From Flavobacteriales bacterium (GTDB lineage Bacteria > Bacteroidota > Bacteroidia > Flavobacteriales > Flavobacteriaceae), in NCBI GenBank assembly GCA_017303755.1, contig JAFLBS010000007.1, positions 92,470 to 156,469 of the forward strand: DNA of 64,000 nucleotides, read 5' to 3'. Below the pieces are notes generated by a model, which saw only the letters and a list, made by a program, of their open reading frames with translations, was not told the DNA's origin and did no database searches. Position numbers and translations under genes: made by a program. Positions 11,444 through 34,001 of the stretch are shown here, one piece after another. Within the stretch, counting starts at the first letter, position 1. Every line of letters begins with the position of its first letter.

Positions 11444-12931
11444 TTATTTGTTGTTGAAATGTTTTTTACTCAACTGGTATTTGTGTAAGCGATGTCCAAT
11501 TATTGCGTAGAGATAATTATCTATTACAAACATTTCTTGCAACTTGGTTTTATTAATGTTATAGATGTAGATACTTGACAAGTAGGTGTTTTTTTCGATG
11601 TTGTACACATCCACAATTGAAGCTTGTTTCCACATTTCTTTGGGTTCATATCGTCCGATTAATTTTGAATTTACAAATAGTAAATTATTAGAAACTGCCG
11701 TTAGTTTGTTTACAGTTGGCGGAAGTGATGCTATTTTTCGTTGTCCCGTTTCTTTAATGTGCGCTACTTTGAGCTTGGCTTTGGTTGTTGTGTCTATAGT
11801 ACTTCCGCGACGGATTAGTTTGAGGTTGGTATCGGCTATGATGAATTGATTTCGGTAGTAATAGGTGTAGATGAATTTTTGCGATTGTTGGTCAAACTGC
11901 ATCATGCCATCAGTATCAAAAAAGCCGTCTATTTGCTTTTGTAATAGCTGAGGTGCATAGTTTACTTGTAAACTGTCTTTGAAAGTAAACGTTCCTAAAA
12001 TGTTATAAAGCGTTTTTAATTGTTGTGCCCGAAAGGCTATTTTATCTGGAGCAATTATTTCGGCTTTTGAGAAATAGTAGTTGTTGTCATACATTACAAG
12101 TTTTGCTTTCCAATCGGATATATTTCCTTTATAGATCACTGGTACAGTGCCATCCATCAGATAAAAATAAGGAGGTGCAATTCGGACTTGTACTGAAACG
12201 AAAGGAAAGTTTTCGCGCTCCAGTTGTATTTTATATTGACGCTTGGTTTTTAAAATGGTATCGTAAGCTAGTATGTGTAATGGTGCTTGACTGTCACCGA
12301 AATAAATGGTTTTGCCATCGGTTCCTGCATAGTATTTTGAATTATTTGTTAATTCGGCTTCGGCTGTTTGGGTTGTTGCACCTTGAATAAATCTTCGGAT
12401 GAATGGGTTTTCGCGGTGCATGGTGTTTTCTGAATAGAAGTATAGAATAACAATTACAGCTGAACCGATAATTGCGATAATTGCCAGTTTTAGAACTGTT
12501 TTGGATTTATTCGTTACCATAAATACTGAGGCTATTGCCGCGAGAATTGTAAAAGCGATATTGAAAATTAGGTGTTCTTTCCAGCCCATTTCTTCAAGTA
12601 TTCCTCCGCAGGAACAAGGCACAAATGAGGAATAATTGAGAATAACAACAATATACGCAGTGAACATTAGCATTAATCCAAATGAGGCTAACAAAGCAAT
12701 ATATCTTGATTTTGGAAAAGCCAGTAGTAAAGCGATGAGGAATTCAATTATTAAAACTGAATAGGAAACAAATCCGGTGTATGCGCTTATAAGTGGTGAT
12801 TGACCGAGTTGGGCTTGAAAGTTTTGGAATTCTAATAACTTGCTTAATGCGGAGTAAACAAAAAGTATCATTAGTAAAATACTTATTATTTCTACAAGAA
12901 TTGTTTTAAGATTGGTGACCTTTATTTTCAT
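11444..12931 (-). CDS. MauE/DoxX-family membrane redox protein fused to a large soluble C-terminal domain
   Basis: LFVYSALSKL, five TM segments, PCSCGGILE motif, then ~320 aa of beta-rich soluble sequence. Confidence 0.85.
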   Translation of the reverse strand: MKIKVTNLKTILVEIISILLMILFVYSALSKLLEFQNFQAQLGQSPLISAYTGFVSYSVLIIEFLIALLLAFPKSRYIALLASFGLMLMFTAYIVVILNYSSFVPCSCGGILEEMGWKEHLIFNIAFTILAAIASVFMVTNKSKTVLKLAIIAIIGSAVIVILYFYSENTMHRENPFIRRFIQGATTQTAEAELTNNSKYYAGTDGKTIYFGDSQAPLHILAYDTILKTKRQYKIQLERENFPFVSVQVRIAPPYFYLMDGTVPVIYKGNISDWKAKLVMYDNNYYFSKAEIIAPDKIAFRAQQLKTLYNILGTFTFKDSLQVNYAPQLLQKQIDGFFDTDGMMQFDQQSQKFIYTYYYRNQFIIADTNLKLIRRGSTIDTTTKAKLKVAHIKETGQRKIASLPPTVNKLTAVSNNLLFVNSKLIGRYEPKEMWKQASIVDVYNIEKNTYLSSIYIYNINKTKLQEMFVIDNYLYAIIGHRLHKYQLSKKHFNNK

Positions 12932-13023: not shown

Positions 13024-13593
13024 TTATTGGCTATCGCTTTCTTTTTCTCTTTTTACTTCGCTTGGCGGAAAATTGTACCGTTTTTTAAATGCTTTATAGA
13101 AATTTGGATAATCATTAAACCCGCATATCAAAGCAATTTCTTTCAATGGAATTGCTGTTTCCTTGATTAGAAAATGCGCTTTCTTCAATCGCTCGTCATT
13201 GTAAAATTGATAGATGCTTGTCTTTACAATATTCCGGAAGCTGTCTTTTAAAGTGAACTCATTAGTGCCAAACATTTTTGAAAGTTCTTTGGTGGTTGGT
13301 AAAGGTTCTTCTAAATGATTTTTGATGTAGTCAAGGACTTTATGAATTAATTCGGCATCGGATTGTTTAGAAGTATTTTGATTTGTACTGTAATCATAAG
13401 GTTGTTTTTTGAACTCGTATTTCGAAATTATATTTTGCATTTTTTCCGCTACTTCATTTAGCATGGTTGCCAATTGGTCCAACTCATCGCCACTACCATT
13501 TGGCTCCACTCGGAACGCTAGATTTCCGGTTGCCATTTCTAAAAGCATCTTATATAAGCTTTTAATTCGCTGTTGGTTTTGTTGATTATCCAT
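13024..13593 (-). CDS. AraC-family regulator with an N-terminal HAMP-like segment
   Basis: EMATGNLAFRVE..DELDQLATMLN (HAMP-like) and C-terminal LKEIALICGFNDYPNFYKAFKKRY. Confidence 0.9.
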   Translation of the reverse strand: MDNQQNQQRIKSLYKMLLEMATGNLAFRVEPNGSGDELDQLATMLNEVAEKMQNIISKYEFKKQPYDYSTNQNTSKQSDAELIHKVLDYIKNHLEEPLPTTKELSKMFGTNEFTLKDSFRNIVKTSIYQFYNDERLKKAHFLIKETAIPLKEIALICGFNDYPNFYKAFKKRYNFPPSEVKREKESDSQ

Positions 13594-13731
13594 TAAGGTA
13601 TATGTGTGAATGATTGCCAGAAAGGAAGTTGGGAAATGCTGACAAAACTATAGCATCGAAGTTTATAAATCAAGAAGTATAGTGTTCCATTCGGGAATTA
13701 AACACCTTGTTTTGGATCTATTTTAAATAAA

Positions 13732-13779: not shown

Positions 13780-15018
13780 CTATGAACTTTTCGCAACTAG
13801 TTGAGGTGCTAATTTTTGCTTGAGAATAGCCATATCATCACTAACTTTTCTATCAACTACTTTTGCGTAATGTTGCGTGGTTCTGATGTTAGTGTGACCA
13901 AGCATTTTGCTCACGCTTTCTATCGGAACGCCATTTGTAAGCGTTATAGAAGTTGCAAATGAGTGTCGTGCAAGATGAAAAGTTAATTCGGTTTTAATGC
14001 CACAAACATCACCAATTTCTTTTAGATAGCTGTTCATTTTTTGATTGCTTAGAACAGGAAGGATTGTTTCTTCATTTATGCACTTTGGATGCGATGCATA
14101 CTTTGCCATGATTTGTTCTGGAATAGGAAGTAATGGAATTTTTGAACTGGTATCGGTTTTTTGCCTGTTCTTGAAAATCCATTTGTTGCCATCAATACCA
14201 ATTCCAATATGATCAGAAGTTAATTGTTTTACATCGATGTAAGCAAGACCTGTGAAACAACAAAATATGAAAATATCACGCACTTGAATTAATCGTTCAC
14301 AATGAAACTTCTTGTTGTAAATAGTTTCGATTTCGCTCTCAGTTAAAAAATCTCTTTCAACTTCCTTGATTTTTCCCTTATACTTTACAAATGGACTTTC
14401 AATAATCCATCTGTTATCCAAGCAGATTTGAATTATCTTCTTGAAGTTTTTGATGTATTTTACAGTTGTATTGTTACTGCAACCACGTTCAGTTCTCAAG
14501 TAGAAATCGTAATCGGTTATAAAAGCTAAGTCGATATCCTTGATATTAATATCTGAAATATTGAATTTCCATTTCATGAATTCTTTAGTATGGCTAAGTG
14601 AAGTTTTGTAACGTTCTAATGTTCCTGGAGAATATTCTTCAGTCTTTACTAAAGCTTCAATTTGATCATTGTGATTTTGAAAGATGGGTACTAGTGTTCG
14701 CTGTTTTTCAGTTTTGCCTGTCAGCACATTATTAAAAACTTCGGCAGTAATGTCCTTATCAACTGCGATTAGTTTCTTTTCAATACTAGAATTTTTTGCA
14801 ATCAGTGAATCAAGGTGGCTATTTATTGTTCTAGCTTCTTCAGAAGTGCCTTTCATTCTGCCTGCTTCTGTTGACCATTTTGTAGGATCAATGTACTTTC
14901 CGGTGCTTTTGTCAAGGCGTTTTCCGTTGATTGTGGTTCTGTGATAAATTGGAACTAGTCCGTGTACATTGGCTTTCGCTCTTTTTAGATAAAAAAGATT
15001 TGTGATTGTTGCTTCCAT
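13780..15018 (-). CDS. int: Tyrosine integrase (Bacteroidota NBU/CTn type) of the left island
   Basis: Arm-binding N-domain, SAM-like domain, R (FTGLAY family variant), HLARHSFAT, LGH, Y (TQHYAK). Adjacent to the att copy at 15269. Confidence 0.95.
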   Translation of the reverse strand: MEATITNLFYLKRAKANVHGLVPIYHRTTINGKRLDKSTGKYIDPTKWSTEAGRMKGTSEEARTINSHLDSLIAKNSSIEKKLIAVDKDITAEVFNNVLTGKTEKQRTLVPIFQNHNDQIEALVKTEEYSPGTLERYKTSLSHTKEFMKWKFNISDINIKDIDLAFITDYDFYLRTERGCSNNTTVKYIKNFKKIIQICLDNRWIIESPFVKYKGKIKEVERDFLTESEIETIYNKKFHCERLIQVRDIFIFCCFTGLAYIDVKQLTSDHIGIGIDGNKWIFKNRQKTDTSSKIPLLPIPEQIMAKYASHPKCINEETILPVLSNQKMNSYLKEIGDVCGIKTELTFHLARHSFATSITLTNGVPIESVSKMLGHTNIRTTQHYAKVVDRKVSDDMAILKQKLAPQLVAKSS

Positions 15019-15166: not shown

Positions 15167-15210
15167 TTTAGTATTGCGAATTAATGAATATTTTGATATG
15201 GGATTAAAAC

Positions 15211-15246
15211 AAAAAACCCCGAAAATCATAAGATTTAAGGGGTTTT
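15211..15246 (-). terminator. att-adjacent hairpin/terminator
   Basis: AAAAAACCCCGAAAATCATAAGATTTAAGGGGTTTT, near-identical to 61142-61177. Confidence 0.7.
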
Positions 15247-15268
15247 GGACTACTTTAAAAAGTATTTT

Positions 15269-15285
15269 GCGGAGAAAGAGGGATT
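15269..15285. repeat. att core: duplication of the tRNA-Ser 3' end
   Basis: GCGGAGAAAGAGGGATT, identical to 61200-61216 (17 bp). Confidence 0.95.
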
Positions 15286-15522
15286 TGTCCATCATTTCTA
15301 ACCGATTGATATTGTTGATTTTAATATCTTTTATAATCCTAGGGTCTCGCTTTTGCTCCTCTAAATGACGTGCAAATTTTTCGAAATCTTATATTACAAA
15401 TGTATGAAAACTAAAGGATTAATCATAACAAAACTTCAATTTATTGTTCAATAAATGAACTAGTTATTGAACTTATCAAGACAATTTCAGAAGTTTAATT
15501 ATTACTACTTTCTTTTACCACC

Positions 15523-15726
15523 TCATCCAATAATCAAAGGTTCTACTTGTTCAATCTTTAGGCTCGTGTATTGGCAGAACTCTTCGACTGATACAAACTC
15601 ATTTTCAAGCTTATTCAGGTCCTTTCTTATCTTTTGTAATAATCTAGCACTTTGTCTATAACTCTTTCCTGTAACGAGTTGTATATCCTTTGGGTAGATA
15701 CATATTCTCTTTTTTTCCATTTTCAT
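15523..15726 (-). CDS. Small basic putative DNA-binding protein (67 aa)
   Basis: IYPKDIQLVTGKSYRQSARLLQKIR, a MerR/Xis-like wHTH pattern. Divergent from the 16012 operon. Confidence 0.65.
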   Translation of the reverse strand: MKMEKKRICIYPKDIQLVTGKSYRQSARLLQKIRKDLNKLENEFVSVEEFCQYTSLKIEQVEPLIIG

Positions 15727-16011
15727 ACTTTATCTATGCCTTTGACTAGGCTTTGATATGCTTGAAACCTAGTCCAGTTTATCTAAAAATCGGATAAAAG
15801 TAAGTCATAATTGTTTTGGTTCAGAAGCAATAATTGAACTGGTTCAATGACAATTATGACTGTTTTGGACATTTATGTCTATTAATGACACTTGAATATT
15901 AAGCAAAAGAATTAAAACTAAAATTTGTTCTCAAATCAATCTAAGGATGTTGCAACAAAGATGATGATTGAGGGAATTGTTCACTGATTTATAAACAAAT
16001 TTTTAAAAGTT

Positions 16012-16770
16012 ATGGCTAGACAGAAAGGCATAATTAAATTAAAAGGTACTATCGGAGATATTACTTTTTACAAAACGCAAGATGGACACTTGGCAAGAGA
16101 AAAAGGCGGAATTGACGCTAGTAGAATTGCAAGTGATCCAGCGTTTCAAAGAACTCGTGAGAATGGTTCCGAGTTTGGCAGAGCAGGAAAAGCTGGGAAG
16201 CTTTTGCGCACTGCTTTAAGACCATTACTTATTAATTCTGCTGATGGTAGAATGGTAAGTCGATTAACCCAAGCTATGGTTAAAGTTATTCAAGCTGACT
16301 TAGTGAGTGATAGAGGTTTGCGTAACGTTATTGATGGAGAAGCTGAATTGTTATTTGGTTTTGAATTCAATATTCGTGGTAAATTAGGTACAAGCTTGTT
16401 TGCACCATTTGTAGCAACAATTGATCGTGTTGCTGGTGAAATTTCAGTTGATATTGCTTCGTTTATTCCTGCGAATATGATTGCTGCACCAAGTGGAACT
16501 ACTCACTTCAAAATTATTTCTGGCGGTGCTGAGGTAGATTTTGAAGCTGAAACGTTTGTTGTTGCTACTTCTGAAACTGCAATTTTGCCATGGGATGCAA
16601 CACCAACAGCTGTTATTAATCAAGTGAATGCGGTTACTGCTGCTAGTACGAAACCTTTGTTTTTGGCTTTGGGAGTTGAATTTTATCAACAAATTAATGG
16701 AACTATGTATCCGCTGAAAAATGGTGCATTTAACCCATTATCTGTTGCTAAGGTTGACAGTGGTGTGTAA
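16012..16770 (+). CDS. Conserved hypothetical protein (252 aa), candidate structural protein
   Basis: Strong A-rich leader, basic N-terminus (MARQKGIIKLKGTIGDITFYK), helical middle, beta-rich C-half. Coupled to the next gene. Confidence 0.8.
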   Translation: MARQKGIIKLKGTIGDITFYKTQDGHLAREKGGIDASRIASDPAFQRTRENGSEFGRAGKAGKLLRTALRPLLINSADGRMVSRLTQAMVKVIQADLVSDRGLRNVIDGEAELLFGFEFNIRGKLGTSLFAPFVATIDRVAGEISVDIASFIPANMIAAPSGTTHFKIISGGAEVDFEAETFVVATSETAILPWDATPTAVINQVNAVTAASTKPLFLALGVEFYQQINGTMYPLKNGAFNPLSVAKVDSGV

Positions 16771-17165
16771 TGGTTTTATTGCTTACTAGAACTTATTTCC
16801 CTGAAGGAACGAATGGTAAACTCGAATGTGAAGGTAAATTGATTTGCAATACAATTGAATTGCCTTGGAAGATGAACGAAACGAAGGTTTCCTGCATTCC
16901 TGAAGGGAAGTATTTTATTAAAAAGCGATACAGTCGGAAGTTTCAATGGCATTTGGAAGTGATTGATGTAAAAAATAGAAGCTTTATTCTATTTCATTCT
17001 GCCAATAATGCTCTCAAAGAGCTAAATGGTTGTATTGCTCCAGTTACAAAACTTTCTGGACCAGGTTTAGGCCTGATGTCGAGAAAGGCATTTATCAAGT
17101 TAAAAAACTTGGTATATCGTGCTTTAGATAGCACAGAAAAAGTTTTATTAATTATTAAATCGTAA
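16770..17165 (+). CDS. DUF5675-family protein (YkuD/L,D-peptidase-like His/Cys motif), putative lysin
   Basis: GTNGKL..CNTIELPW..SCIPEGKY..ILFHSANN...GCIAP pattern. Confidence 0.8.
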   Translation: MVLLLTRTYFPEGTNGKLECEGKLICNTIELPWKMNETKVSCIPEGKYFIKKRYSRKFQWHLEVIDVKNRSFILFHSANNALKELNGCIAPVTKLSGPGLGLMSRKAFIKLKNLVYRALDSTEKVLLIIKS

Positions 17166-17169
17166 AAAG

Positions 17170-17790
17170 ATGAAAAATTTATTGAATACAATCGTTTTTA
17201 AATCCCTAGCATTATTTGCAATGGTTTTGTTAGTAGCTTTTGCAGTTACTACAAGTTTTAACCCTTTAGATCAATCTAATGATATTGGAGGTAAAAACAA
17301 AGATATTATTAAGCATACAACTGATACTCCTATCGCGGATATTGGTGGTGGTGGAAAAGGAACCTCAACCACTTTGAAAGCAGATATTGGAGGTAGCAAA
17401 GGTATAAAAGGTGAAGTTATCGACAATCAATATGAGATTTCTGATATTGGTGGAAGAAATACTAATACTACTGGAAACTTTTCTGTTGACGATATCGGAG
17501 GAAGAAATGGAACAGGAACTTCAACTGGTGGTGAATTTCAAATTACAGATATTGGTGGAAGAAGTACAACTTCAACTGGAAATTACACTTCAAATGATAT
17601 TGGTGGTAGAGGAACAAACACAGGGACTGGAGAATATTCAATTTCAGATATTGGAGGTAGAAGTACCAATTCAACAGGAAACTTTGCTTCAAATGATATT
17701 GGTGGTTCAAGAGATCATGTAATTATTAGAAGAATTCCAATACCATTTGCATCCGAAATTGGTGGAAAAAGTACAACAATTGGTCAGTAA
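17170..17790 (+). CDS. Secreted protein with ten (D/E)IGG repeats
   Basis: Hydrophobic signal peptide, then ten (D/E)IGG-anchored Gly/Thr/Ser/Asn-rich units of about 15-21 aa. Confidence 0.85.
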   Translation: MKNLLNTIVFKSLALFAMVLLVAFAVTTSFNPLDQSNDIGGKNKDIIKHTTDTPIADIGGGGKGTSTTLKADIGGSKGIKGEVIDNQYEISDIGGRNTNTTGNFSVDDIGGRNGTGTSTGGEFQITDIGGRSTTSTGNYTSNDIGGRGTNTGTGEYSISDIGGRSTNSTGNFASNDIGGSRDHVIIRRIPIPFASEIGGKSTTIGQ

Positions 17791-17817
17791 TTTTCGTTGA
17801 ATTTAAAAACTAAAATT

Positions 17818-18030
17818 ATGAACTTAATTAAAAGAGCAAAAGCTCCGACACCAAAATTTTTTAAAGTGCTTCGAAATATTGGTTTGGCGTTGGCTGCCGT
17901 TGGTGGAACTATTTTAGCTGCTCCAATTGCTTTGCCTGTAATTGTAACTACCATTGGTGGTTATGTTGCGGTAGCTGGTGGAGTTTTGTCAGCTGCAAGT
18001 CAGCTTACTACAACTGATGACAGCCAATAA
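17818..18030 (+). CDS. Small hydrophobic holin-like membrane protein (70 aa)
   Basis: Basic N-terminus and two hydrophobic segments. ATG at 17818 preferred over the track's TTG at 17797. Confidence 0.6.
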   Translation: MNLIKRAKAPTPKFFKVLRNIGLALAAVGGTILAAPIALPVIVTTIGGYVAVAGGVLSAASQLTTTDDSQ

Positions 18031-18193
18031 TCCCACATTGATGGGAACTGCTGGAGGTACATTTTTAAGTATAGTACCGAATATTCATTCTGAAGACATT
18101 GCAAGAACAGTTATTTTAGCTACTGTTGGAGCTGTTGTCAGTTTTACGATTTCGTTACTGCTTAAGAGCATAAATAAGAAGCACAAAAAATAA
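18017..18193 (+). CDS. Small membrane protein, holin-like (58 aa)
   Basis: ATG at 18017 overlapping the previous gene, TM helix TVILATVGAVVSFTISLLL, basic tail KSINKKHKK. Confidence 0.6.
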   Translation: MTANNPTLMGTAGGTFLSIVPNIHSEDIARTVILATVGAVVSFTISLLLKSINKKHKK

Positions 18194-18234
18194 GTTTTGC
18201 CCTAGTTGTGGTGACCTTTGGGTTAAACAAAATG

Positions 18235-18264
18235 AAAGCCAAGTTATTAGACCTGGCTTTTTTT
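18235..18264 (+). terminator. Terminator of the 16012-18193 operon
   Basis: AAAGCCA...TGGCTTT stem followed by a T-run. Confidence 0.6.
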
Positions 18265-18454
18265 ATTCAGAGAGTTTTAAAATAATTTCAATCTTTTTAT
18301 TTCTATTATATTTTAGTCTTCCAAATTTTTCAATCGCTTTACCAAATTCATTCATTTTGGTATTAAAATCATGCCAATCCTTATCTAAATCACTTAATAA
18401 AGCCTTGTCTTTAGCATCATTAAGTTCAATTTCTTTTCTTTTTATTTCTTCCAT
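18263..18454 (-). CDS. Small hypothetical protein (63 aa)
   Basis: Open frame with coiled-coil-like composition directly downstream of the 18485 gene. No recognisable family. Confidence 0.4.
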   Translation of the reverse strand: MEEIKRKEIELNDAKDKALLSDLDKDWHDFNTKMNEFGKAIEKFGRLKYNRNKKIEIILKLSE

Positions 18455-18484
18455 TATTTTTAAATTAATTTATTCAAATTTAAT

Positions 18485-18904
18485 TTATTTAATATATCTG
18501 TGCAAAATAACTCTCCGCATATCATTGATAAGATTTAGATTTTCATGGAAACGTTTTTCGCTTTGTTCCAAAAGCTTTAAAGTTTCGATATTCTTAACGT
18601 GTTCCTTATGGTCTTTTATCTCTTGGTTGACTTTTATTGAAAATTCTTTTCTAATGTCGTATAAGCTCAAAAATGGGATTACTGAACCTCTAAGGAATTG
18701 ATGCCAAAATTTTGTTTTCCAAAGTGCATAAGCCGTTAAATTGATAGTGTCAAAATCAGATTCGTTTTCAAAAATGATAACAAAACTGTTTGTAAATGGC
18801 TCTATTTGTGGCTTTCCGCTGTTCATTCCTTTGTTAAGCAGGAATAAATGTGGTTTTGTGTAGATAGTTTCTTTTCTGTGGCTTTTAATGATAAATTTCA
18901 GCAT
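18485..18904 (-). CDS. DUF6943-like protein
   Basis: FLLNKGMNSGKP...FTNSFV...LRGSVIPFL pattern, typical of Bacteroidota mobile elements. Confidence 0.7.
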   Translation of the reverse strand: MLKFIIKSHRKETIYTKPHLFLLNKGMNSGKPQIEPFTNSFVIIFENESDFDTINLTAYALWKTKFWHQFLRGSVIPFLSLYDIRKEFSIKVNQEIKDHKEHVKNIETLKLLEQSEKRFHENLNLINDMRRVILHRYIK

Positions 18905-19046
18905 AACATCGGGTTTAAAAAATTAGATTAATTTTCAATTTTTTGTGGTGTTTCTTATGAAATGCAGTTGTGCCTCGCTACGCTCCGCCCATTAAAATTT
19001 TTCAAAAGAAAAAAAGAAAAAAAAGAAAGCCATTCGTCCAAGTGGA

Positions 19047-20306
19047 AGGTTTCAAAAAAGCAAGTTTTTCAGAAAAAATACTACCCGATAAGTGATTGAA
19101 ATCGTTAGCATCTAATCGAAAGTAGTATGTATTTTGAAACTGTTTGGGTGGAGATTTTTTCTGAAACCCGCAGGGCTTGAACTTGCTTTTTTGAATACCT
19201 GGAACTTATCTTTGCTTCCTTTTTTTTTTATTTATTTTGAAATTTCAATCTGTTGTTCTTATAAAATCGAAGTTGATTCTGAAGTAATGAGAGTTGAATT
19301 GGAAGATGTTCGTCTTCGGAAAGGGTATCAAATTCTTTGGATGGATGAATAAACCAAATCAGAAAATAAAAAAGCTATTCATCCGGCCAAAGAATTTGAT
19401 ACTCTTTCTTGGATTTGATTTTTGAGGATGCCTAAAAGTCAGTTGCAAGTGGCAGTGTTCAGTTAGCAGTTAATAATCTTATGGAAATGGGAAGCATCTT
19501 CAAAAAACAATGCATTATACTGCCGAGTGCGATGTGGCAGTAGCGCAAGTAAGGGTATCATTTTTTATTTGCTTATTGGGATGTTTCTGATTGCTTTAGT
19601 GGAAAAGCTGATGCCTGAAATTCAGTTGACAGTCGCAGTGTTCAGTATTCGGCAGATTATCTTAAAAAACGGTATGGCATCAGCTTTTTCGCTGGAGCAA
19701 TTATTACTTGTTTTCTGGCAAATAAAAAATGATACTCTTACTGGGGATTTTGGTTTTGTGGGTTCTAAAAATGGCTTTACCATAGGCAAATAATTAAAAG
19801 TTAAAGCCATTTTTAGAACTTACAAAAGCAATGAAAACACTTCCTATTTAAACGCAAAGTTGATAAAAACAGTTACCGTGAACGTTCATAAAAGCAATGG
19901 TAACCGAAACTATTCCTATGATATGGTAAATGTTCTTAAAGACAGTGGCGAAGGACGGTTTTTTTTGTAGCTGGGTGATGCGATGGGAGCTACAAAAAAA
20001 GTTGTCCTAGAGCCACTGGCACGAGCGTTGGGTGAGCGGCTTTTTTACATAATGTTATTATAGTGCATCCGAGATTTTGATTAGTAGCAGGATAGTCCCT
20101 ATGCACTATAATGCAACATTATGTAAAGAAGCTTGGGAAAAAAAATTACTGGCATGAGTTGCGAAGCGTACGTGTTTTTGTTTTGTGCGTTGGGCAAGCT
20201 CTTTGGCTGATGGCGTGCAGGATTTTTCAATTTACATATAATTTTCTTGCCATCAGGTAAAGTGCTTGATGAGCGTTGGGACAAAAACCATGACAGTAAT
20301 TTTTTT
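19047..20306 (+). other. Non-coding array of about eight long imperfect hairpins
   Basis: Stems: 19051-79/19154-95, 19323-51/19376-404, 19419-31/19494-506, 19589-615/19676-702, 19754-79/19802-27, 19943-72/19988-20018, 20039-68/20101-32, 20139-56/20289-306. Confidence 0.85.
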
Positions 20307-20335
20307 AGGAGCGTTGGGAAGGAGTGGCAATAAAG

Positions 20336-21262
20336 CTATAATTGAATATTTTTGATATAAAATCCTAACTCATATTCAATAGAATCACTCTCTAAATCAG
20401 GATCAATATCGATTTCTTTTAATACTAATTTATTATTTCTTGTGTCTGTATAAGAATCAATTGCTTTAGGGATTTCTATACCAGTAATATCTTCAATAAG
20501 AGAAATGTTAACTTGATAAGTGTCTGCATCTTTAAATTGCATAAAAAGTTGGTCTTCTGATTCTAATTCTTCTATAATATGATTTTCTTGAAGCAATTTA
20601 TTCTGGCTCATCATAAACCCGACCCTGTAAAGATTCCCATCTTCTTTTTGAAAAACAACGACTTTCCAAAACAGAGAAGGGATTTGTATTTGTTTACCAT
20701 TTATAGGTGTTACAAAATATGGATTTGAACTTAATAAAACTGGACCTGTAAAAACACAAATACGTAATTCATTTCGCTTTGTTTCAGTATGGAGTATGTA
20801 ATCCTCTAAACTTCGCCATATATCTCTATTTAAATCTTTGTGCTGTGGAACTGCATTCGTATAATAAAATGTTGAGTTAGCAGCATTTAAGGCTATCCCA
20901 GGAGTTTCTCCCCATTGTACGTCTTCCCGTTTAGTCATATGACCTTTGTCAAAATCACTTTTTAGGGCACTGTAGAGTTCTTTACCCATTTGAAACTCTT
21001 TGGATAATCTTGTGTCTTTTCGCCAATTATCCTTTCTTGGAACTTTCTTAAATTGAATTCCATCAATATTTGTTGCTGTATAGAATGGAAACTTGTGAGA
21101 TGCAGATTGTTGTAAACTGTAATTAATGTATTTTATAACTTTATTACCTTCATCATCTGAAACCAAATCATCATTTTGGTCTGAGCTAAGATTAGGTAAA
21201 AGTACCGTTTGGTTTGAGATGAATTGTTCATCATAACCTTGAAATAATTTTTCACTTATCAT
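20336..21262 (-). CDS. DNA/RNA non-specific endonuclease (NucA/EndoG His-Me finger), no signal peptide
   Basis: FDKGHMTKR, TFYYTNAVPQHKDLNRDIW..LEDY, VFTGPV, IPSLFWKVV. Confidence 0.93.
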   Translation of the reverse strand: MISEKLFQGYDEQFISNQTVLLPNLSSDQNDDLVSDDEGNKVIKYINYSLQQSASHKFPFYTATNIDGIQFKKVPRKDNWRKDTRLSKEFQMGKELYSALKSDFDKGHMTKREDVQWGETPGIALNAANSTFYYTNAVPQHKDLNRDIWRSLEDYILHTETKRNELRICVFTGPVLLSSNPYFVTPINGKQIQIPSLFWKVVVFQKEDGNLYRVGFMMSQNKLLQENHIIEELESEDQLFMQFKDADTYQVNISLIEDITGIEIPKAIDSYTDTRNNKLVLKEIDIDPDLESDSIEYELGFYIKNIQL

Positions 21263-21266
21263 AAAT

Positions 21267-22298
21267 TCAGTTTTTATGGTTGTCTTTTACAAATTGAATA
21301 ATTTTATTAATGAAAATACCTTCATTCCGTGATTTGATTCCTGTAGGAAGTTCTGGCTCTCCTGGTCTACTTCCACCTCCACTATGATGTAAAGCTACTA
21401 CTTCCCAATCTGAATTAAATACGGGAGAACCGGAAGATCCTTTTAATGTATCTGTGAGATATTGAACAACTCGGCTGTCTGTATGGGTTACGATGTTATG
21501 ATAAAGAGAAATTTGTTTCATTTCTCCTCCAGGATGCTGAATAATATTAACGAAATCATTTGGTTTTATTTCAACATCATTTAGTTCTATATATCCGTAT
21601 GAGTCTAATTCTCCTTGTTCATGAATGAGTTTACAAACTATTGTGTCATATTCATTTACAGTAGACCAATATATGGGTTTATTTTCATCAATATGGAAGC
21701 CTTTAGAAGGAATGCTGTTACCGTTTATATCCAATTCATAATCAAAAATAATTTTAGTTTTAGCAATGCGATTTTCATCTTTGATAACATGATAATTAGT
21801 AATAAAAAACAACTCATCGATGCCCTTCACCTTGAAGAGAAATCCGGTACCAACATCAAAACGATTGCTACCTACCTTAATTTCTACTTTTCCAACAGCT
21901 TTGCTTTTCTGAACTCCTTTTGCTAAAAAGTTAACAGGAAGCAAAGTACTACGCCCCATTGTCAAAACTTCTAGCGTTTCTTCAGCGACATCTTGCCATT
22001 TGGAAACTTTATCAATATCCGGGCTTAAAGAATAATCAATTTCTTTTGTAGCCAAAGCCGATTTTAAAAATGGATTATCAGGATAGGTGTCTAATACAGA
22101 TTTTACTAATTCATCAACTTTACTGTTCTTGTCTGCTTCACTTAGAACATTGCTCCAAACGTCCATAGCGTTACCACTTTCATTTATATGTTGTGGTTTC
22201 AGCCCTGCTGCTTTTACATATTTTGTGATTCCATCCTTATTAGGAACCAAGTCACTTAAAACATCATTTAATTGCGTAAGTTTTTTTGTCCAAGCCAT
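21267..22298 (-). CDS. EAD1-trypsin-like (V8-type) serine protease
   Basis: N-terminal ~80-aa EAD1-like domain. Catalytic triad TNYHVI, YDTIV, GSSGSPVF. Confidence 0.92.
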   Translation of the reverse strand: MAWTKKLTQLNDVLSDLVPNKDGITKYVKAAGLKPQHINESGNAMDVWSNVLSEADKNSKVDELVKSVLDTYPDNPFLKSALATKEIDYSLSPDIDKVSKWQDVAEETLEVLTMGRSTLLPVNFLAKGVQKSKAVGKVEIKVGSNRFDVGTGFLFKVKGIDELFFITNYHVIKDENRIAKTKIIFDYELDINGNSIPSKGFHIDENKPIYWSTVNEYDTIVCKLIHEQGELDSYGYIELNDVEIKPNDFVNIIQHPGGEMKQISLYHNIVTHTDSRVVQYLTDTLKGSSGSPVFNSDWEVVALHHSGGGSRPGEPELPTGIKSRNEGIFINKIIQFVKDNHKN

Positions 22299-22299
22299 T

Positions 22300-23445
22300 T
22301 TATATAAATATTTGTGGATAATCTACTGTTACTCTATCAACAAGGTTTTCTACCATTTCTTTTTTGATACACAAATCAATAAGTTGGGAAGACATATTGA
22401 CCGCCGAGTCTTCTACCAATAAAGAAACATTCACGCCAATTTTTTTTGCCAAAGTTCTAACTGATACACTGGATTGATAATATTGCGGAAGCTTTATCAT
22501 TAACTCTTCTACCGATTGCTCCTTGAAATATGCTCCGCGAATTCTCTCGTATAGTAAGTTTAGTTTTGCCTTTTCAGAAGTACTCGATAATTCTGATGGG
22601 CATAAATACCTAGATTCAAAAATTGGATTTACTATATTGGGATTTAAAAGGTATTCACCGTTTCGTCCTTCTTTCTTTGCATATTCTTTAAAGAAATGTT
22701 CAATTTCACTATTAACATTTTTCACTTTACTATCTGCCGTTACATATACAAAGTCATAAAAAAGACTATCTTGATATTCGTATTCCATTAAAGAAAAAGG
22801 ATGATAAGCGACAGGATAATTTCTTTCTAATACTTGGATTTTATCAATAGAATCAATTACCAAATATCCTCTGGGTATATCTTTGGTTGAAGCAAATTTT
22901 GATGCCCAGTAAATATCCATTGGTAGCCATTTAGCACCTCTAATCATAACGCAATCTCCTTGCTTGATTTTCAAATGATCGTAAACTTCAGGGAAGCATA
23001 ACAAAGGAATCCCAGTAGATGCATTACAACCAGCACTAACTGATAATAATACTTTTCTTTCATCAGTCGGTGGTAATAATAATGTACCTACACCTCCCAT
23101 CACTTTTTTAGATTTCCCAGGAGGATAAAACTCTATCCACTGCTTACTTTGTAAAGCAATATCTTCCATCTTATGCTGTCTTATTTGTTCTGATGATGGA
23201 GTCCAATAAAGTCCAGGAACACGAGCAACCCAATCGGAAACTACAAAATCGTATAAGTCAATTTTTTGGTTCCAATATTTAGTGGGATCAGCAATTACGT
23301 TTCTCCAAAACTCTTCATCATTAGAGAACCAAAAGTTTTCATAATTTGAAATATTTTCATTTAGAGAGTTTACTTCTTCAGCTAAAGCATAATTCTCTAT
23401 AGTTTCAATGAGTTTTGTTCCTTTGTATAATTCTTTTAGGCCCAT
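22300..23445 (-). CDS. Unknown ~305-aa domain with a C-terminal EAD1-like domain
   Basis: The last ~70 aa align by eye with the trypsin N-domain (L...YY...V..LAK.IG...LV..V..DYP). Confidence 0.7.
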   Translation of the reverse strand: MGLKELYKGTKLIETIENYALAEEVNSLNENISNYENFWFSNDEEFWRNVIADPTKYWNQKIDLYDFVVSDWVARVPGLYWTPSSEQIRQHKMEDIALQSKQWIEFYPPGKSKKVMGGVGTLLLPPTDERKVLLSVSAGCNASTGIPLLCFPEVYDHLKIKQGDCVMIRGAKWLPMDIYWASKFASTKDIPRGYLVIDSIDKIQVLERNYPVAYHPFSLMEYEYQDSLFYDFVYVTADSKVKNVNSEIEHFFKEYAKKEGRNGEYLLNPNIVNPIFESRYLCPSELSSTSEKAKLNLLYERIRGAYFKEQSVEELMIKLPQYYQSSVSVRTLAKKIGVNVSLLVEDSAVNMSSQLIDLCIKKEMVENLVDRVTVDYPQIFI

Positions 23446-23451
23446 AATCAG

Positions 23452-25989
23452 TTATGTTTTTATGAAGTTTTTTCTTAAATCATATATGATTTTAAACTTC
23501 TGGTTTTCCCCATATTGTTTTTTTACTTCTTTAAGTAAATTGTTCATTGTTATTTCTTTGAAGTGCTCCTTGCGTAATTTATAAAACACATTACTCCAAA
23601 TTTCGCTTGATGTTCCTTTTGCGAGTAGATCAGATTCTTTTCCTCCTGCCTTTTTCCAAATTGTTGTTAATGAAGTCCCATTTGGATATAGCTCAACAAT
23701 TAATTCTTCTGCACTTTGCCACCATTCATTTGTTGGAATACTAACTGAGGATAAAATACCTGAAAATGATAAAAGTCCTTTGGTTATAAAGTCAAGAAGG
23801 TGGTGACATTCTGCTAATGCAAATTTCCAATTATTGTTTTTGGAAGCTTTGGAATTAATTATATAAGTTGAATTGGAAAATCGTCTTTTTGCTATCAGTT
23901 GCCCCAATTGAGTCGCGTCAATAGAACTAATTTGTCCTGAAAAGTTATTCAAATAATCTCGAAGATTACTGTCGCTCAACTGAGAAAATCTATCAAATAC
24001 TTGAATTACAGATTTAAGATTATTTCTATTGAAATACAAGAAATCAGCGATGCCCTTTCTACTTATGTGATCCAACAAAACAGCATCATTAGGTATCTCA
24101 ATGGTTGAGTTTTTACTGAGTTGTTCAAGTAATTCAGCAGACGTTTTGATTAAGAAATTGTCTTTTGCAGATGAAGGAAATTTACCCCATAAAATAGTCC
24201 TATTAGGATACGTTAGTAGATTTCCAAATTCGGAGTGGGAAATTTTATTAATAAGTCTTTCAGAAACCACATTGCCACCAATAAGATGGTCAAACAATTT
24301 ATGTATTTCTTTTTGAGGCTCTTTTAAACCAGAATCCACTTGATTTCCATTTTCAATTGCCTCAGCCCAAATTAGCTGCCAGTTGTCATTTAAAACATCT
24401 ATTCTCTTCAGATTCTTAGATGAATAATGGCAGATTTTACCGGCAATTTTAATCATTCGAGATTCACCAGTATCAATAGCATAATCAACAATTGAGTTAT
24501 CATCTTTTCCTGTTACTATCGCCTCAACAGCTTCAAAATAATTTTCATCCTGATCAATTTTGAATAGTTCTGTTAGAGCAGTACCTAATTCAAATTGCCT
24601 ATCCAATAGATATGCGTATAACCTTAGCCAATTATTGCTAATAGAGAATTCTTGTAGTTCTTCAATAAGTTCCTTTGAAATTTTCTTAGGTAACTTTTCA
24701 ATAAAACAGCTTTCAGCATTTTTGGATTTGTCGATAAAAGATTTAATTATGGACAGAATGAATGGTGATTCCATTAACCAAGTGTAAACAATAGCAATCT
24801 TGGAAGCTTGAGCGGTTCCTAAGTAGGATTCAAGCTCTTGTGTTATTACTTTATCCCACCAATTCGGATTACTCTTTTTTACCTGCTCAAAAAATGAGGT
24901 ATATCCAACTGATTTATTTTCAAGTGAAAAAATATATTTCTTCATCCAGCCTATTAAAGCTGTTGATAAAGTTTTTTTTGAGTTCTTGAAGCTCTCCGTT
25001 TTGAAATTCCTTAATATATTTAGGTCAGAAAAGTTTGCCGATTCTGCTAATTGGACAATCTTATTTAATAATAGTTGCTTAAAATCTGTACCTTGTTTGT
25101 CCGAATGAGCATATTCTGCTACAATATGTGAAAGGGTATTTAGCTTTTTAAGATCTCTTACGCTGTCTAAGTGTTCAAAAGTATCAATACCTTTCGCTAT
25201 TAAGGCAATATCTTCTCGTGAAAGAGACTTTGATTCAATCGCTTTCTCGAAATTGCTAATACGTTGTTGAACGGACACATCACCAATTAATAATTGTTCT
25301 ATTAACTCGGTAGGTTCATGGTTGTCGTTCTTTCCAATAACAAAGAAGTCCGATCGGAGAAACTTGCTTTGAACACTTTCAGGTACAGCAATTAGGCTTA
25401 TGTGATTAGTTTCTTTATGGTCATTATTGAATGCAATACCAAACTGAAAATTTGGTCGTTCAATAACGGTTAGACGTTTCCACAACTCTATAACCGCTGT
25501 GTCAAAACCTTCCTGCCCAATCCATATTAATGTATTCTTATGGCTGTTTATGTTAATATAGCCATTAATAAGTTTGTTGAATTTGCCCCGAATAGCATCC
25601 GGTATACCGACGGCATCATTTGAGGACATTTCTATTGAAATCGGTTCCAGATCCGTACTCTTATTTATTTCTTGGGGTAATAGACTTATAATTTGCACTA
25701 TATTATCTATTTTTATTATTTCTTCTTTCTGAATCATCAGAACATGAGAATATTTCCTGCCTCTTCTTACATCAGGAGCTGTATCCTCAAATGTTTTCAT
25801 AATCAAAAAATAGTCTCCTTCCGAAAATCCGCGAATAGCAGGCTCCCAATTAACTCCACTAGTTTGATCTTGTAAATCCGTCCTAAAGGCAATGCTCTTA
25901 GCGATATTAACATCCGGCAAGGTAGTTTTTATTAAACCCCATGCTTTATTCACTTCTCCGCAAATGGATTGATGTATTATTACTTTCAC
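23452..25989 (-). CDS. GAP1-type (GTPase-associated protein 1) with a C-terminal EAD1-like domain
   Basis: N-terminal IHQSICGE..D...G..YFLIMKTF.D...RRGR..SHVL (GAP1-N1-like), long helical middle, C-terminal ELYPNG...IWKKAGG...IWSNV. Confidence 0.75.
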   Translation of the reverse strand: MKVIIHQSICGEVNKAWGLIKTTLPDVNIAKSIAFRTDLQDQTSGVNWEPAIRGFSEGDYFLIMKTFEDTAPDVRRGRKYSHVLMIQKEEIIKIDNIVQIISLLPQEINKSTDLEPISIEMSSNDAVGIPDAIRGKFNKLINGYININSHKNTLIWIGQEGFDTAVIELWKRLTVIERPNFQFGIAFNNDHKETNHISLIAVPESVQSKFLRSDFFVIGKNDNHEPTELIEQLLIGDVSVQQRISNFEKAIESKSLSREDIALIAKGIDTFEHLDSVRDLKKLNTLSHIVAEYAHSDKQGTDFKQLLLNKIVQLAESANFSDLNILRNFKTESFKNSKKTLSTALIGWMKKYIFSLENKSVGYTSFFEQVKKSNPNWWDKVITQELESYLGTAQASKIAIVYTWLMESPFILSIIKSFIDKSKNAESCFIEKLPKKISKELIEELQEFSISNNWLRLYAYLLDRQFELGTALTELFKIDQDENYFEAVEAIVTGKDDNSIVDYAIDTGESRMIKIAGKICHYSSKNLKRIDVLNDNWQLIWAEAIENGNQVDSGLKEPQKEIHKLFDHLIGGNVVSERLINKISHSEFGNLLTYPNRTILWGKFPSSAKDNFLIKTSAELLEQLSKNSTIEIPNDAVLLDHISRKGIADFLYFNRNNLKSVIQVFDRFSQLSDSNLRDYLNNFSGQISSIDATQLGQLIAKRRFSNSTYIINSKASKNNNWKFALAECHHLLDFITKGLLSFSGILSSVSIPTNEWWQSAEELIVELYPNGTSLTTIWKKAGGKESDLLAKGTSSEIWSNVFYKLRKEHFKEITMNNLLKEVKKQYGENQKFKIIYDLRKNFIKT

Positions 25990-26816
25990 AATAATGCCTG
26001 CTCTATTAGTTCTGTAATGTCATTTGTTTGGACGCCATCAGGCAATACTAAATATCCAAATTCTTCTGGTCCCTCAATCTGATATTTTTCTTTGTTCTCC
26101 GGTGTAGTCAGAGAAAACCCTTGAGCAGAAAGACCAACTAAGTTCAGATAATTTTCATCCCAGTTAGACTCCAAGAAGTTTAATAAAAGTGGTAATTTAG
26201 ATTGCAATACATTATAAGGCTTTTCTTCTGTATTCATTTCATCCCAGCAGGTTAAGACAATGGTCAACTTCGGCTTATCATTTACCTTATGGTAGTCTGT
26301 TCCTTTAGCATGTAAAAGGATTTGTAATAATTCGATAAAAAAGCTTTGATCCGATATTTTATACTCGGTTTCAGAAACCGGCTCTTTCGCATTTTTATGA
26401 TGTTGTTCAGAATAGGTAACATCACTGATATCTAAAGGCTTGTTTACATTATTTAACCTGATAAATAAAATCCAGCTGTTACTTTCCTGTATGGAAGCTG
26501 TCCATTCTTTATTTAACTCCCGATTTTCAACAATACTTAAAACCTGTTCTCCTCCATATTCGGGACATTTTAAATCAACCTGCTTTTCAGCTACCTGAAT
26601 AGGTAAGTAAAACTTCACACTTTTTTCAGATGGAGTTGTCTGTGGTTCTTCTCCTGATGCTAATGCTTCTCTTGCCCCGGAAATAGGAGATAGATCATCC
26701 ACTGATTTATAAAGCTTCAGCTTACTCTTATTTTTCTGCAATTTTGAGTAAAATTGTGAAAGGAATACTGTCTTGGATGAATGTGGTTTTCCGATAAGTA
26801 ATATAGATGTACCCAT
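25986..26816 (-). CDS. TRAFAC-clade GTPase domain protein, degenerate motifs
   Basis: G1 GKPHSSKT, G3 EYGGE, G4 TCWDE. Confidence 0.8.
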   Translation of the reverse strand: MGTSILLIGKPHSSKTVFLSQFYSKLQKNKSKLKLYKSVDDLSPISGAREALASGEEPQTTPSEKSVKFYLPIQVAEKQVDLKCPEYGGEQVLSIVENRELNKEWTASIQESNSWILFIRLNNVNKPLDISDVTYSEQHHKNAKEPVSETEYKISDQSFFIELLQILLHAKGTDYHKVNDKPKLTIVLTCWDEMNTEEKPYNVLQSKLPLLLNFLESNWDENYLNLVGLSAQGFSLTTPENKEKYQIEGPEEFGYLVLPDGVQTNDITELIEQALL

Positions 26817-27776: not shown

Positions 27777-27777
27777 A

Positions 27778-29025: not shown

Positions 29026-29034
29026 ATTTCTTTT

Positions 29035-31404: not shown

Positions 31405-31405
31405 C

Positions 31406-32629: not shown

Positions 32630-33262
32630 TTATAAGTTCAAATTCACATTATCGATATAAAACTGTAATTCGTATAAATGAATAAGCTCTTCATGGTTAT
32701 TAGGCATTTGAGCTAGTTGTACGAAATTGATGTTTTGATATACTGATTTCTCACCCAATAAATCCTGTATTATGATGTAGATGGCTTGTTCCCACGTTTT
32801 GGTGTTGCAATAGAGTTTGAAGTTTTTTAGATACACCGTTATATCTAATTTTTTAGTTTGCTCGTCATAATTGAGCGGTAGGAATTTGATTTCACTGGTT
32901 TTGATTGTTATTTCTTGGAATACATAGGGTTCGTCTAATCCTTCTATGATTTTGTCAATGCTATCAGTTGGTTGGATGAAAGCTGTGAACTTCCAATGTC
33001 TTAAGGCAGGTGCTTTTTTGATTAATTCGGTTACTTGAGCAAAGTATTCCGGATTGCCATTGGCCGTAATGATTAATTCGGCTTTTTCCTTTTCTTTCTT
33101 GGGAAATATTATTAAAAAATCTAATTCCTTGCAGTAATAGCCCAAATGTCTGTTTAGCCAAAAGTAGAGGTGCTTTTGCGTTTTTGGTGTTTCGTTGATT
33201 AGGTTTTTGATGGTTTGGTTGTTGTCTTGGAACCAGTTCCAGAAGGTGTTTATTTTTCTCAT
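32630..33262 (-). CDS. Conserved hypothetical protein (210 aa)
   Basis: FWNWF...ELIITANGN...APALRHWKFTAF. Clean ORF, function unclear. Confidence 0.75.
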   Translation of the reverse strand: MRKINTFWNWFQDNNQTIKNLINETPKTQKHLYFWLNRHLGYYCKELDFLIIFPKKEKEKAELIITANGNPEYFAQVTELIKKAPALRHWKFTAFIQPTDSIDKIIEGLDEPYVFQEITIKTSEIKFLPLNYDEQTKKLDITVYLKNFKLYCNTKTWEQAIYIIIQDLLGEKSVYQNINFVQLAQMPNNHEELIHLYELQFYIDNVNLNL

Positions 33263-33288
33263 AGGATTATTTTCGAGTTATGAATTAT

Positions 33289-33313: not shown

Positions 33314-33316
33314 AGT

Positions 33317-33928: not shown

Positions 33929-33950
33929 AGTGTGTTGTTCTTGATAGAAA

Positions 33951-33993: not shown

Positions 33994-34001
33994 GTTATTA
34001 C

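Follow-up and report, generated by a model that had tools for sequence, protein, structure and literature searches.

A conserved gene module beside a tRNA-Ser attachment core as a candidate backbone arm of plasmid-like elements in Bacteroidota

Based on a comparative analysis of a 64,000-nucleotide stretch of DNA from a Flavobacteriales bacterium (contig JAFLBS010000007.1; hereafter the window), we propose a reading of the gene group at positions 15523–18904. The group consists of a small divergent gene (HTH67), a gene for a 252-residue protein (P252), a DUF5675 gene, two small membrane protein genes (TM70/77 and TM58/71) and a convergent DUF6943 gene. The segment from 15286 to about 20330 is interpreted as one backbone arm, distal to the tRNA, of a plasmid-like episome of Bacteroidota that replicates itself and integrates, here in a tRNA-Ser gene; in this interpretation we place about as much belief as doubt. 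Evenly balanced in our minds, too, is the view that the arm is made of three separable units, namely HTH67/P252, a phage-derived lysis cassette, and DUF6943 with a chain of hairpins, a cargo slot lying between the second and the third. HTH67/P252 is the signature backbone of a pan-Bacteroidota family of plasmids and integrated islands. That the Flavobacteriia branch of this family carries a phage-type lysis cassette is the best-supported account of that branch, and the local copy belongs to a tandem array, composite and in part decayed, that extends over 15.3–61.2 kb. The window is AT-rich, with about 25–41% G+C per kb, and its nearest relatives are Flavobacterium genomes; F. daejeonense, F. 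cheonhonense and F. succinicans are examples of species in which the module occurs. Literature searches under linked terms returned no published description of the element, and none for DUF6943, for RteC in Flavobacterium or for satellites of Flavobacteriia.

Conservation and replicon context of the module

The comparison set comprised 80 related loci from GTDB species genomes, and metagenome loci were examined in addition. An earlier, sequence-only reading of this DNA had listed open reading frames (ORFs) that are indeed present at their coordinates, in an order common to 72–76 of the 80 loci. That order is HTH67 on the minus strand, then P252, DUF5675, TM77 and TM58 on the plus strand, then DUF6943 on the minus strand; the first five genes account for the figure of 72–76, DUF6943 is found in 59 loci, and most of the metagenome loci examined have the identical arrangement. 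Because the order is repeated so widely in both sets, the clustering far exceeds chance. The flanks of the module are hypervariable, with almost no genes in common among loci. Identity across loci is 71–94% for P252, 49–88% for DUF5675 and 43–91% for HTH67, and even P252 homologues at only 39–42% identity still have DUF5675 and small proteins downstream.

The replicons that carry P252 provide the strongest indication of what the module is. A tblastn search of PLSDB located P252 on eight plasmids, all of them typed as non-mobilizable. One is p1 of Marivirga sp. BKB1-2, a 25,320-bp circle that bears TM58, TM77, DUF5675 and P252, with HTH67, Int, HTH_17, p274 and a DnaC-like gene on the other side, together with cargo. 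This is the entire backbone, permuted as in attP (the circle attachment site), and it shows the family to occur as a circular replicon of its own. The other seven are co-resident plasmids of Fulvitalea axinellae, 44–325 kb in size; in the three that were inspected HTH67/P252 lies a few kb from rep, parAB is near in two, and the lysis genes are absent. Chitinophagia islands (Lacibacter, Niastella and Flavisolibacter) encode P252 at 71–72% identity and keep only HTH67/P252 with DUF6943 or DUF6876, again with no lysis genes, and their cargo is defence or arsenic and metal resistance. Since the pair is found both on plasmids and in these lysis-less islands, HTH67/P252 is a general backbone unit of Bacteroidota replicons, while the lysis cassette was added long ago and is missing from some lineages. 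In all, P252-marked replicons span Flavobacteriia, Chitinophagia and Cytophagia, with IetAS, GAP1 GTPase systems, BREX-like and Abi systems and metal resistance as cargo.

Could the module itself serve defence? In an abortive-infection scheme P252 would sense phage and trigger early lysis through DUF5675 and the membrane proteins, a role that we consider very unlikely. The surroundings invite the idea, as the island is dense with IetAS, a GAP1 GTPase system, an EAD1-protease and a nuclease; a stop–start overlap couples the conserved soluble protein to the putative lytic effectors, and TM77 gives a RexB-like match, at a non-significant E=0.0076. However, the module is backbone rather than cargo, with a fixed position beside the attachment (att) site whatever the cargo, arsenic and metal resistance included, and P252 occurs without lytic genes on plasmids and in Chitinophagia. 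PADLOC holds no family for P252, DUF5675 or HTH67, and its matches to TM77 and DUF6943 are weak, near E=0.01. Defence sensors usually evolve fast, and the conservation of P252 is far above what is usual for them.

HTH67 (15523–15726, minus strand) is a small basic protein of 67 aa with an isoelectric point (pI) of 9.2; it is divergent from P252 and present in 76 of the 80 loci. Its profile matches, to helix-turn-helix (HTH) and Cox-like proteins, are weak only, and it is a candidate switch regulator and/or excision cofactor. The divergent control region (15727–16011) contains the palindrome ATTGAAC-TG-GTTCAAT at 15833–15848, and further copies of the heptamer ATTGAAC stand at 15446, 15466 and 15549, so that 5 of the window's 20 sites fall within 15446–15848. 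The clustering is local only, with no enrichment across the window (20 sites found versus 18.5 expected), and the palindrome region may act as an operator or an arm-site.

The arrangement is interrupted at three slots, which appear to be insertion hot spots. The first, between HTH67 and P252, holds a HipA-like kinase and an Xre-type HTH gene in several loci; toxin–antitoxin-type inserts consisting of the kinase, a small partner and the Xre-type gene were noted there in L006, L019, L044 and L069, and an Xre-ParS/RES module occupies a backbone slot in L172. The second, between DUF5675 and TM77, receives DIGG/TGG-repeat proteins. In the window this is DIGG206 (17170–17790, plus strand), a 206-aa protein with a hydrophobic N-terminal signal or anchor followed by about eight D-I-G-G-[RSK]...T-G repeats. 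It is an uncommon, optional insert of the operon, seen in about two of the 80 genome loci and at loci L037, L050, L092, L120 and L135; related 'xGG' repeat proteins of 180–340 aa occupy the same slot in L006, L037, L045, L050, L058, L061, L092, L120 and L135. The operon as described by the sequence-only reading contains the genes that it listed, but DIGG206 had been omitted and the convergent gene had not been named as DUF6943. The third slot, between TM58 and DUF6943, holds assorted minus-strand genes. A terminator-like hairpin, by consensus match only, lies in the convergent gap (18235–18260, minus strand), and beyond it a charged 63-aa ORF (18263–18454, minus strand) sits in the variable cargo slot downstream of DUF6943. 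This ORF recurs in one other locus only; in relatives the position is taken by a 59-aa family and assorted genes. A second, divergent P252 paralogue (27–32% identity) lies upstream of P252 on the opposite strand in L035, L041, L064, L071, L076, L118 and L133; in L076 it stands behind HTH67 on the same strand. A gene for a CpsB-like PHP phosphatase is found on the paralogue side in L041, L071 and L076, directly adjacent in the latter two.

P252 and the lysis cassette

What, then, is P252? The gene (16012–16770, plus strand) encodes a soluble protein of pI 8.8 and is the best conserved of the module. The family is large, with 6755 matches among 90%-identity clusters and 3286 clusters at 50% identity (E ≤ 0.001), a uniform length of about 250 aa and at least 585 matching stretches in GTDB species genomes; the module keeps one gene order across hundreds of species. 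Ten longer homologues contain no Pfam domains, and the six tails that were inspected resemble read-through. No match to P252 was obtained in Pfam, PHROG, NCBIfam or PADLOC, in a phmmer search of the PDB, or in a PDB search with a 107-sequence profile. An AlphaFold2 model built on the 107-sequence alignment has a mean predicted local distance difference test (pLDDT) value of 96.1 and a predicted template modelling score of 0.87. It predicts a small N-terminal beta unit, a helical region at residues 36–94 and an eight-stranded C-terminal sandwich.

The sequence-only reading had put P252 forward as a candidate capsid, coat or helper-interference protein, and had named a Foldseek comparison with capsid folds as a check. 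That comparison turned up no capsid-type match. Foldseek of the model against the PDB and BFVD gave nothing at E ≤ 0.001, and HK97, jelly-roll, tube and decoration proteins were not among the matches. Generic C2/Ig-like sandwich matches (E ≥ 1.5e-3, TM ≤ 0.3 on the query, sandwich only) were rejected as uninformative. Three adjacent tight hairpins in the predicted sandwich would be in keeping with a Greek-key/C2-like topology more than with a jelly roll. A tblastn search of 50,697 phage genomes yielded zero P252 matches, and a pattern scan of IMG/VR produced 39 pattern matches of which none was confirmed, although such elements would not be classed as viral anyway. Two P252 orthologues are named 'Phage major capsid protein' in UniProt, whereas NCBI lists the same sequences as hypothetical; the name, of untraced source, seems to have been assigned automatically, and the searches of sequence families and folds do not support it. 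With neither a capsid fold nor a phage match, and with the pair on plasmids, the structural role proposed for P252 finds no support here.

These results bear on the reading of the element as a phage satellite, in which helper infection would trigger excision and replication, P252 would be a capsid, coat, remodelling or interference protein, and the lysis cassette would time the release of helper particles filled with the element. We regard this as decidedly unlikely. The P252-to-lysis order mimics a viral late operon and is kept at 39–42% identity, and the capsid name in UniProt would fit, were it not apparently automatic. Integration at tRNA genes and frequent tandem arrays agree with it as well, and the minimal relatives of about 9–14 kb, with int, RteC, HTH_17, initiator, DnaC-like, P252 and lysis genes, resemble satellites of the PICI type. 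The fold and phage searches, with a model as confident as that of P252, speak against it, and so does the wide span of element sizes, about 9 kb to over 40 kb, for which no fixed capsid would be suited. Moreover, since HTH67/P252 is carried by ParAB/Rep plasmids and by lysis-less islands, it is hard to square with a role in virions or towards helper phages.

The plasmid and island context suggests that P252 serves maintenance, establishment or DNA processing. Conserved residues are R49, E50, N51, E54, R84, D96, R104, N120, R139, T164 and H165; the invariant columns contain no Tyr or Ser nucleophile and no HUH motif. Together with the pI these residues are compatible with nucleic-acid binding or with an enzyme. 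P252 is most likely a factor that acts on nucleic acids in maintenance or establishment, rather than part of a virion.

The start codon of DUF5675 (16770–17165, plus strand) overlaps the stop codon of P252, and the protein matches PF18925 (E=4.6e-32) and phrog_1501 (E=2.6e-17). Residues H76, G87 and C88 are invariant, and the motif H76...G87-C88-I recalls the His...Gly-Cys site of YkuD/C82 peptidases. DUF5675 has been classed as C82-like by structure, its function being stated as unknown (bioRxiv 10.64898/2026.04.11.717860). Our model of the protein is mediocre (pLDDT 67.6), and its only coherent Foldseek match, the L,D-transpeptidase LdtMt5 (4z7a), is non-significant at E=0.29. DUF5675 is a putative C82/YkuD-like peptidoglycan peptidase. 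Homologues occur in 130 phage records, among them Vibrio, Cellulophaga, Salinibacter and Rheinheimera phages; in one late region tail-fibre genes precede the homologue, and a microvirus of 5 kb has one too. The earlier description of DUF5675 as phage-related with holin-like neighbours agrees with the Pfam, PHROG and phage-record matches.

TM70/77 (17818–18030, plus strand, with an alternative TTG start at 17797) has two transmembrane (TM) segments by hydropathy, a basic N-terminus and an acidic C-terminus. TM58/71 (17978/18017–18193, plus strand) has one strong hydrophobic segment and the basic C-terminal tail KSINKKHKK. The TM58 and TM70 genes overlap by 14 nt, and each is present in 76 of the 80 loci. 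The features of holins, one to three TM segments, a charged C-terminus and an adjoining enzyme, can be recognized in both, which suggests that TM70/77 is holin-like and TM58/71 holin- or antiholin-like. Searching the module for a spanin or disruptin, we recognized no lipoprotein/TM pair and no embedded gene; DIGG206 is secreted but rare. The cassette resembles phage holin–endolysin cassettes in its small phage-common peptidase-like enzyme followed by two membrane proteins with charged tails, encoded by overlapping genes. It differs from them in that the enzyme is putative, there is no spanin-like gene, the cassette stands behind a non-phage gene, and part of the family lacks it.

Attachment sites, integrases and the class of element

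The module ends at an att core (15269–15285) that is identical to the last 17 nt, at the 3' end, of tRNA-Ser (GCGGAGAAAGAGGGATT) and forms the distal end of the module-bearing element. The window contains two copies of this 17-mer, with 0.06 expected by chance; the other lies inside tRNA-Ser at 61200–61216. In 40 of the 80 related loci the 17-mer is found 220–250 bp from HTH67, and no whole tRNA stands near the 17-mer and HTH67 in the 50 loci scanned. Across the core lies Int412 (13780–15018, minus strand), an intact tyrosine integrase (Pfam Phage_integrase/Arm-DNA-bind_5), and between the two is an integrase-side att arm (15171–15268) that is part of the neighbouring element and resembles the arm between a second integrase, Int418, and tRNA-Ser. 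Core and arm together form a 115-nt direct repeat, 15171–15285 and 61102–61216, at 73% identity. Because the 17-mer recurs between Int412 and HTH67, the module is the tRNA-distal end of an element; because it separates the two genes, Int412 is most likely the integrase of a tandem neighbour, and Int412-core-HTH67 is a junction resembling attP where tandem elements abut.

The composite island has its proximal att end at Int418 (59683–60939) and tRNA-Ser(tga) (61200–61285), together 59683–61285 on the minus strand. Int412 and Int418 are paralogous, both intact and about 75% identical at the nucleotide level. Bounding att direct repeats are thus present (15269–15285 and 61200–61216), but the 46 kb between them combines at least two elements, as indicated by a third, truncated integrase, a 190-nt remnant of the 3' end of the gene (51403–51592, minus strand) with 83% identity to Int418 and 73% to Int412. 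Islands have accreted in tandem at tRNA-Ser, and the inner junctions have decayed.

The integrase-side backbone arm (32630–36214, minus strand) consists of p210, a DnaC-like loader (33317–33928, minus strand; the sole backbone ATPase), the initiator-like p274 (34002–34826, minus strand), an excisionase-like HTH_17 gene (34965–35252, minus strand) and RteC (35366–36214, minus strand; E=1.5e-87). The phage-type initiator/DnaC-like pair noted earlier is borne out by the match of the loader to phrog_50 (E=1.2e-14). The wider inventory of integrase, excisionase-like, RteC, initiator and DnaC-like genes is likewise correct, except that the integrase adjacent to the module probably belongs to the tandem neighbour; in the window the module-bearing element has no intact integrase of its own beside RteC. 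In four relatives (L046, L049, L134 and L149) the genes p210-DnaC-like-p274-HTH_17-RteC stand directly beside Int-core-HTH67-P252, the order expected from circular permutation, which fits the circle model.

In the metagenome runs, contig depth over 15700–18100 is two to three times that on either side, in an unrelated soil run it is much higher still, and assemblies break over this interval, with several co-occurring strains bearing near-identical copies of the module. The extra depth over 15.7–18 kb in the source runs is cross-mapping from other strains. On the far side of Int412, paralogous 495-aa ORFs resembling membrane or beta-propeller proteins lie at 1522–3009 and 11444–12931 (both minus strand), and a 35-nt repeat with 83% identity (1463–1497 and 13671–13705) is found downstream of the first and upstream of the AraC189 gene (13024–13593, minus strand). 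AraC189, p495 and an S9 peptidase travel as a block that L026, L123 and L154 have inside or next to a P252 element and that may be island cargo.

To what class does the element belong? By Pfam, no relaxase, type IV coupling protein (T4CP), tra, terminase, portal, capsid or tail domain occurs in ORFs of at least 90 aa between 13 and 61 kb, and conjugation genes are also absent from the minimal 9–14 kb relatives. The element is not an integrative and conjugative element (ICE), because no conjugation genes were found; on this point the sequence-only reading, which had cited the lack of relaxase, T4CP and tra, was right. An ICE-type integrase and excision regulators are present (Phage_integrase/Arm-DNA-bind_5, RteC and HTH_17), and elements of the CTnDOT/NBU type share the RteC, the Arm-DNA-bind_5 integrase, the HTH_17 excision-type protein and a Bacteroidota host. 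Unlike these, the element lacks Mob/relaxase, an oriT-linked mob gene, T4CP and tra, and has the initiator/DnaC-like pair and lysis genes.

A prophage finds no counterpart in the gene content either, with no structural match in PHROG or Pfam and no capsid, portal, packaging ATPase or terminase of known fold. Decay of a prophage, leaving lysis genes and an orphan structural gene without a current role, is scarcely credible to us. DUF5675 is phage-related and the local array is partly decayed, with its integrase remnant; yet the module genes are all intact and their order is kept across hundreds of species and at 39% identity of P252, which at 71–94% is otherwise highly conserved. Intact genes in a maintained order imply purifying selection on a functional unit.

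The comparison with satellites is closer. The satellite-type core is present as Int, HTH_17, p274 and the DnaC-like gene with no virion genes, and compact relatives exist (L030, L119, L145 and L165). Like the SaPI/PICI, P4-like, cfPICI and PICMI families, the element combines a tRNA site and a tyrosine integrase with an AlpA/excisionase-like HTH_17 and replication of its own, has minimal forms of about 10–25 kb, carries defence cargo at hot spots, lacks tail and terminase genes and forms tandem arrays. It differs in lacking a pri-rep primase-helicase, terS and any homologue for capsid-size or packaging interference, and its signature gene, P252, belongs to plasmid backbones as well. For terS/pac, capsid-size redirection and helper late-gene control, no backbone gene has a PHROG match. 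We know of no satellite family described with a lysis cassette of its own. The description 'satellite-like' therefore holds for size (about 9–25 kb in relatives) and gene set but not for hijack genes, whose homologues are missing; it is a fair functional analogy, and satellite-like transfer may occur.

Nearer to the integrative, plasmid-like episome that we favour are integrative plasmids and episomes, and cargo islands that target tRNAs, such as the tycheposons and VEIMEs mentioned in PMC11876622. They share the combination of a tyrosine recombinase, replication genes and variable cargo at tRNAs. They have integrated and circular forms, the latter paralleled by Marivirga p1, and may travel in vesicles or borrowed capsids. 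Their recombinase, replication and backbone genes are different, the host phylum of our element is Bacteroidota, and HTH67/P252, DUF6943 and the hairpin chain belong to no described family among them. Charybdis elements (bioRxiv 10.1101/2025.08.03.668216) were set aside, being archaeal, 4.6 kb long and unrelated in gene content.

Hairpins, cargo and a possible mode of release

DUF6943 (18485–18904, minus strand; PF22105, E=4.9e-49) is convergent with the P252 operon, occurs also in Niastella elements, and is the head gene of a variable-cargo operon. Beside it lies an ORF-free stretch of 1.4 kb (18905–20335) that is conserved at the DNA level in 52 of the 80 loci, always adjoining DUF6943, and that contains a chain of at least six long conserved hairpins (19020–20050, plus strand). 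In the first hairpin (about 230 nt, 31 sequences) 48 pairs are 95.9% paired, with 23 of them compensatory; none of 500 shuffles equalled this, and slid controls were 42–63% paired. RNAalifold on 19.02–20.05 kb with 27 sequences recovers 175 pairs, 81 compensatory, in at least six hairpins. Folding of the region is strand-specific, with –165 kcal/mol on the plus strand versus –87 kcal/mol on the minus strand, and permutation and sliding controls are far lower. A cmscan of Rfam 15 at E ≤ 1 returned only spurious miRNA-type matches far below gathering scores. RNA-type runs contain contigs across the region, a contig-level observation that carries neither strand nor true expression and that DNA carry-over could produce. 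The hairpins are absent from minimal relatives and undetected in Chitinophagia loci by three short motifs. The chain may be a new structured RNA or, alternatively, a set of sites active in single-stranded DNA (ssDNA), Frpo/ssi/sso-like, upstream of the DUF6943/cargo operon. With Frpo/ssi sites and with RNAs of the ROOL/GOLLD type it shares long, strand-specific, covarying hairpins in an ORF-free region beside a variable-gene operon, and it differs from them in having no Rfam match and no linked conjugation machinery.

If the hairpins were ssDNA sites, a Frpo-like promoter and/or priming sites, the element could be one that is mobilized as ssDNA by co-resident conjugative elements. HTH67/P252 would then supply a new oriT-processing or establishment function, and DUF5675 with the membrane proteins would remodel the wall locally. 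Such a mobilizable element is, in our judgement, unlikely. In its favour are the hairpins, strand-specific and covarying, that immediately precede the DUF6943 operon on the minus strand, and the variable cargo slot directly behind DUF6943, which has a parallel in the leading-region islands of conjugative plasmids. An unrecognized mobilization function would also explain the ubiquity of P252 in relaxase-less, 'non-mobilizable' backbones, and RteC, going by its Pfam name, is a regulator typical of Bacteroides conjugative and mobilizable transposons. On the other hand, homologues of relaxase, T4CP and oriT were not detected, and the invariant columns of P252 include neither a Tyr/Ser nucleophile nor an HUH motif. 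The hairpins are also missing from minimal relatives and unseen in Chitinophagia by the three motifs, plasmid loci not having been scanned, and given the RNA-type contigs that span the region an RNA fits at least as well.

The cargo beyond the hairpins is dedicated to defence (20336–32494, minus strand). By Pfam and PADLOC it comprises Endonuclease_NS, trypsin-EAD1, a 381-aa ORF, GAP1-N1/EAD1, DO-GTPase1, DO-GTPase2, GASH and IetS/IetA, the last two with PADLOC values of E=0 for IetS and E=4e-135 for IetA. GAP1-N1, DO-GTPase1, DO-GTPase2 and GASH constitute a 'GTPase-associated' conflict system with an EAD1-linked trypsin protease, and the 381-aa ORF (22300–23445) is unannotated. Further along, three tandem 396-nt units with 72–74% identity (45453–46544) lie within the gene of a surface protein sorted by the type IX secretion system (45199–46683), which is situated among three neighbouring Por_Secre_tail proteins.

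For the integrative, plasmid-like episome we envisage the following cycle. The integrase, with HTH_17 and/or HTH67 as cofactors, would excise the element at the 17-bp core to give a circle whose attP has the structure Int-core-HTH67. The p274 initiator and the DnaC-like loader would replicate the circle, and HTH67 would gate the P252-lysis operon. Lysis of some cells would release copies of the element as free DNA, in vesicles or in the particles of a co-infecting phage, while the defence cargo (IetAS, the GAP1 GTPase system and the nuclease and protease effectors) would pay for carriage. Several observations weigh against this account. In the contigs of the source activated sludge the Int412-core-HTH67 junction is at chromosomal depth, with no circle or empty site, and among 47 metagenome loci checked, each 7 kb or longer, no contig is circular. 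The matches on Marivirga p1 are frameshifted or fragmentary, possibly through decay or assembly errors. For P252, the conserved polar residues would suit an enzyme just as well. The lytic role of DUF5675 and the TM proteins is putative, with a non-significant fold search and no spanin-like gene identified, and the account offers no reason for a plasmid-like element to kill its host.

What would the model imply for Bacteroidota? A bolder version, which we advance as tentative and are inclined to doubt, is that HTH67/P252 is an unrecognized backbone function, for example in DNA processing or establishment, that spreads 'non-mobilizable' replicons, and that together with release by self-lysis and the hairpin device it defines a new class of lysis-assisted elements. 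If true, a lysis-assisted, plasmid-like class of elements would be building defence islands at tRNA-Ser, and episomes would be released in Flavobacteriia by explosive lysis, in vesicles or in borrowed capsids. P252 is a marker of a backbone common to plasmids and tRNA-integrated islands, and the hairpin chain is a candidate for a new structured RNA or ssDNA signal. Genetic tools and mobile-element biology are poorly developed in Flavobacterium, and lysis-assisted release is a testable route. An understanding of how replicons with neither relaxase nor capsid move would account for the spread of defence islands and resistance genes among Flavobacterium from the environment and among relatives of fish pathogens in that genus.

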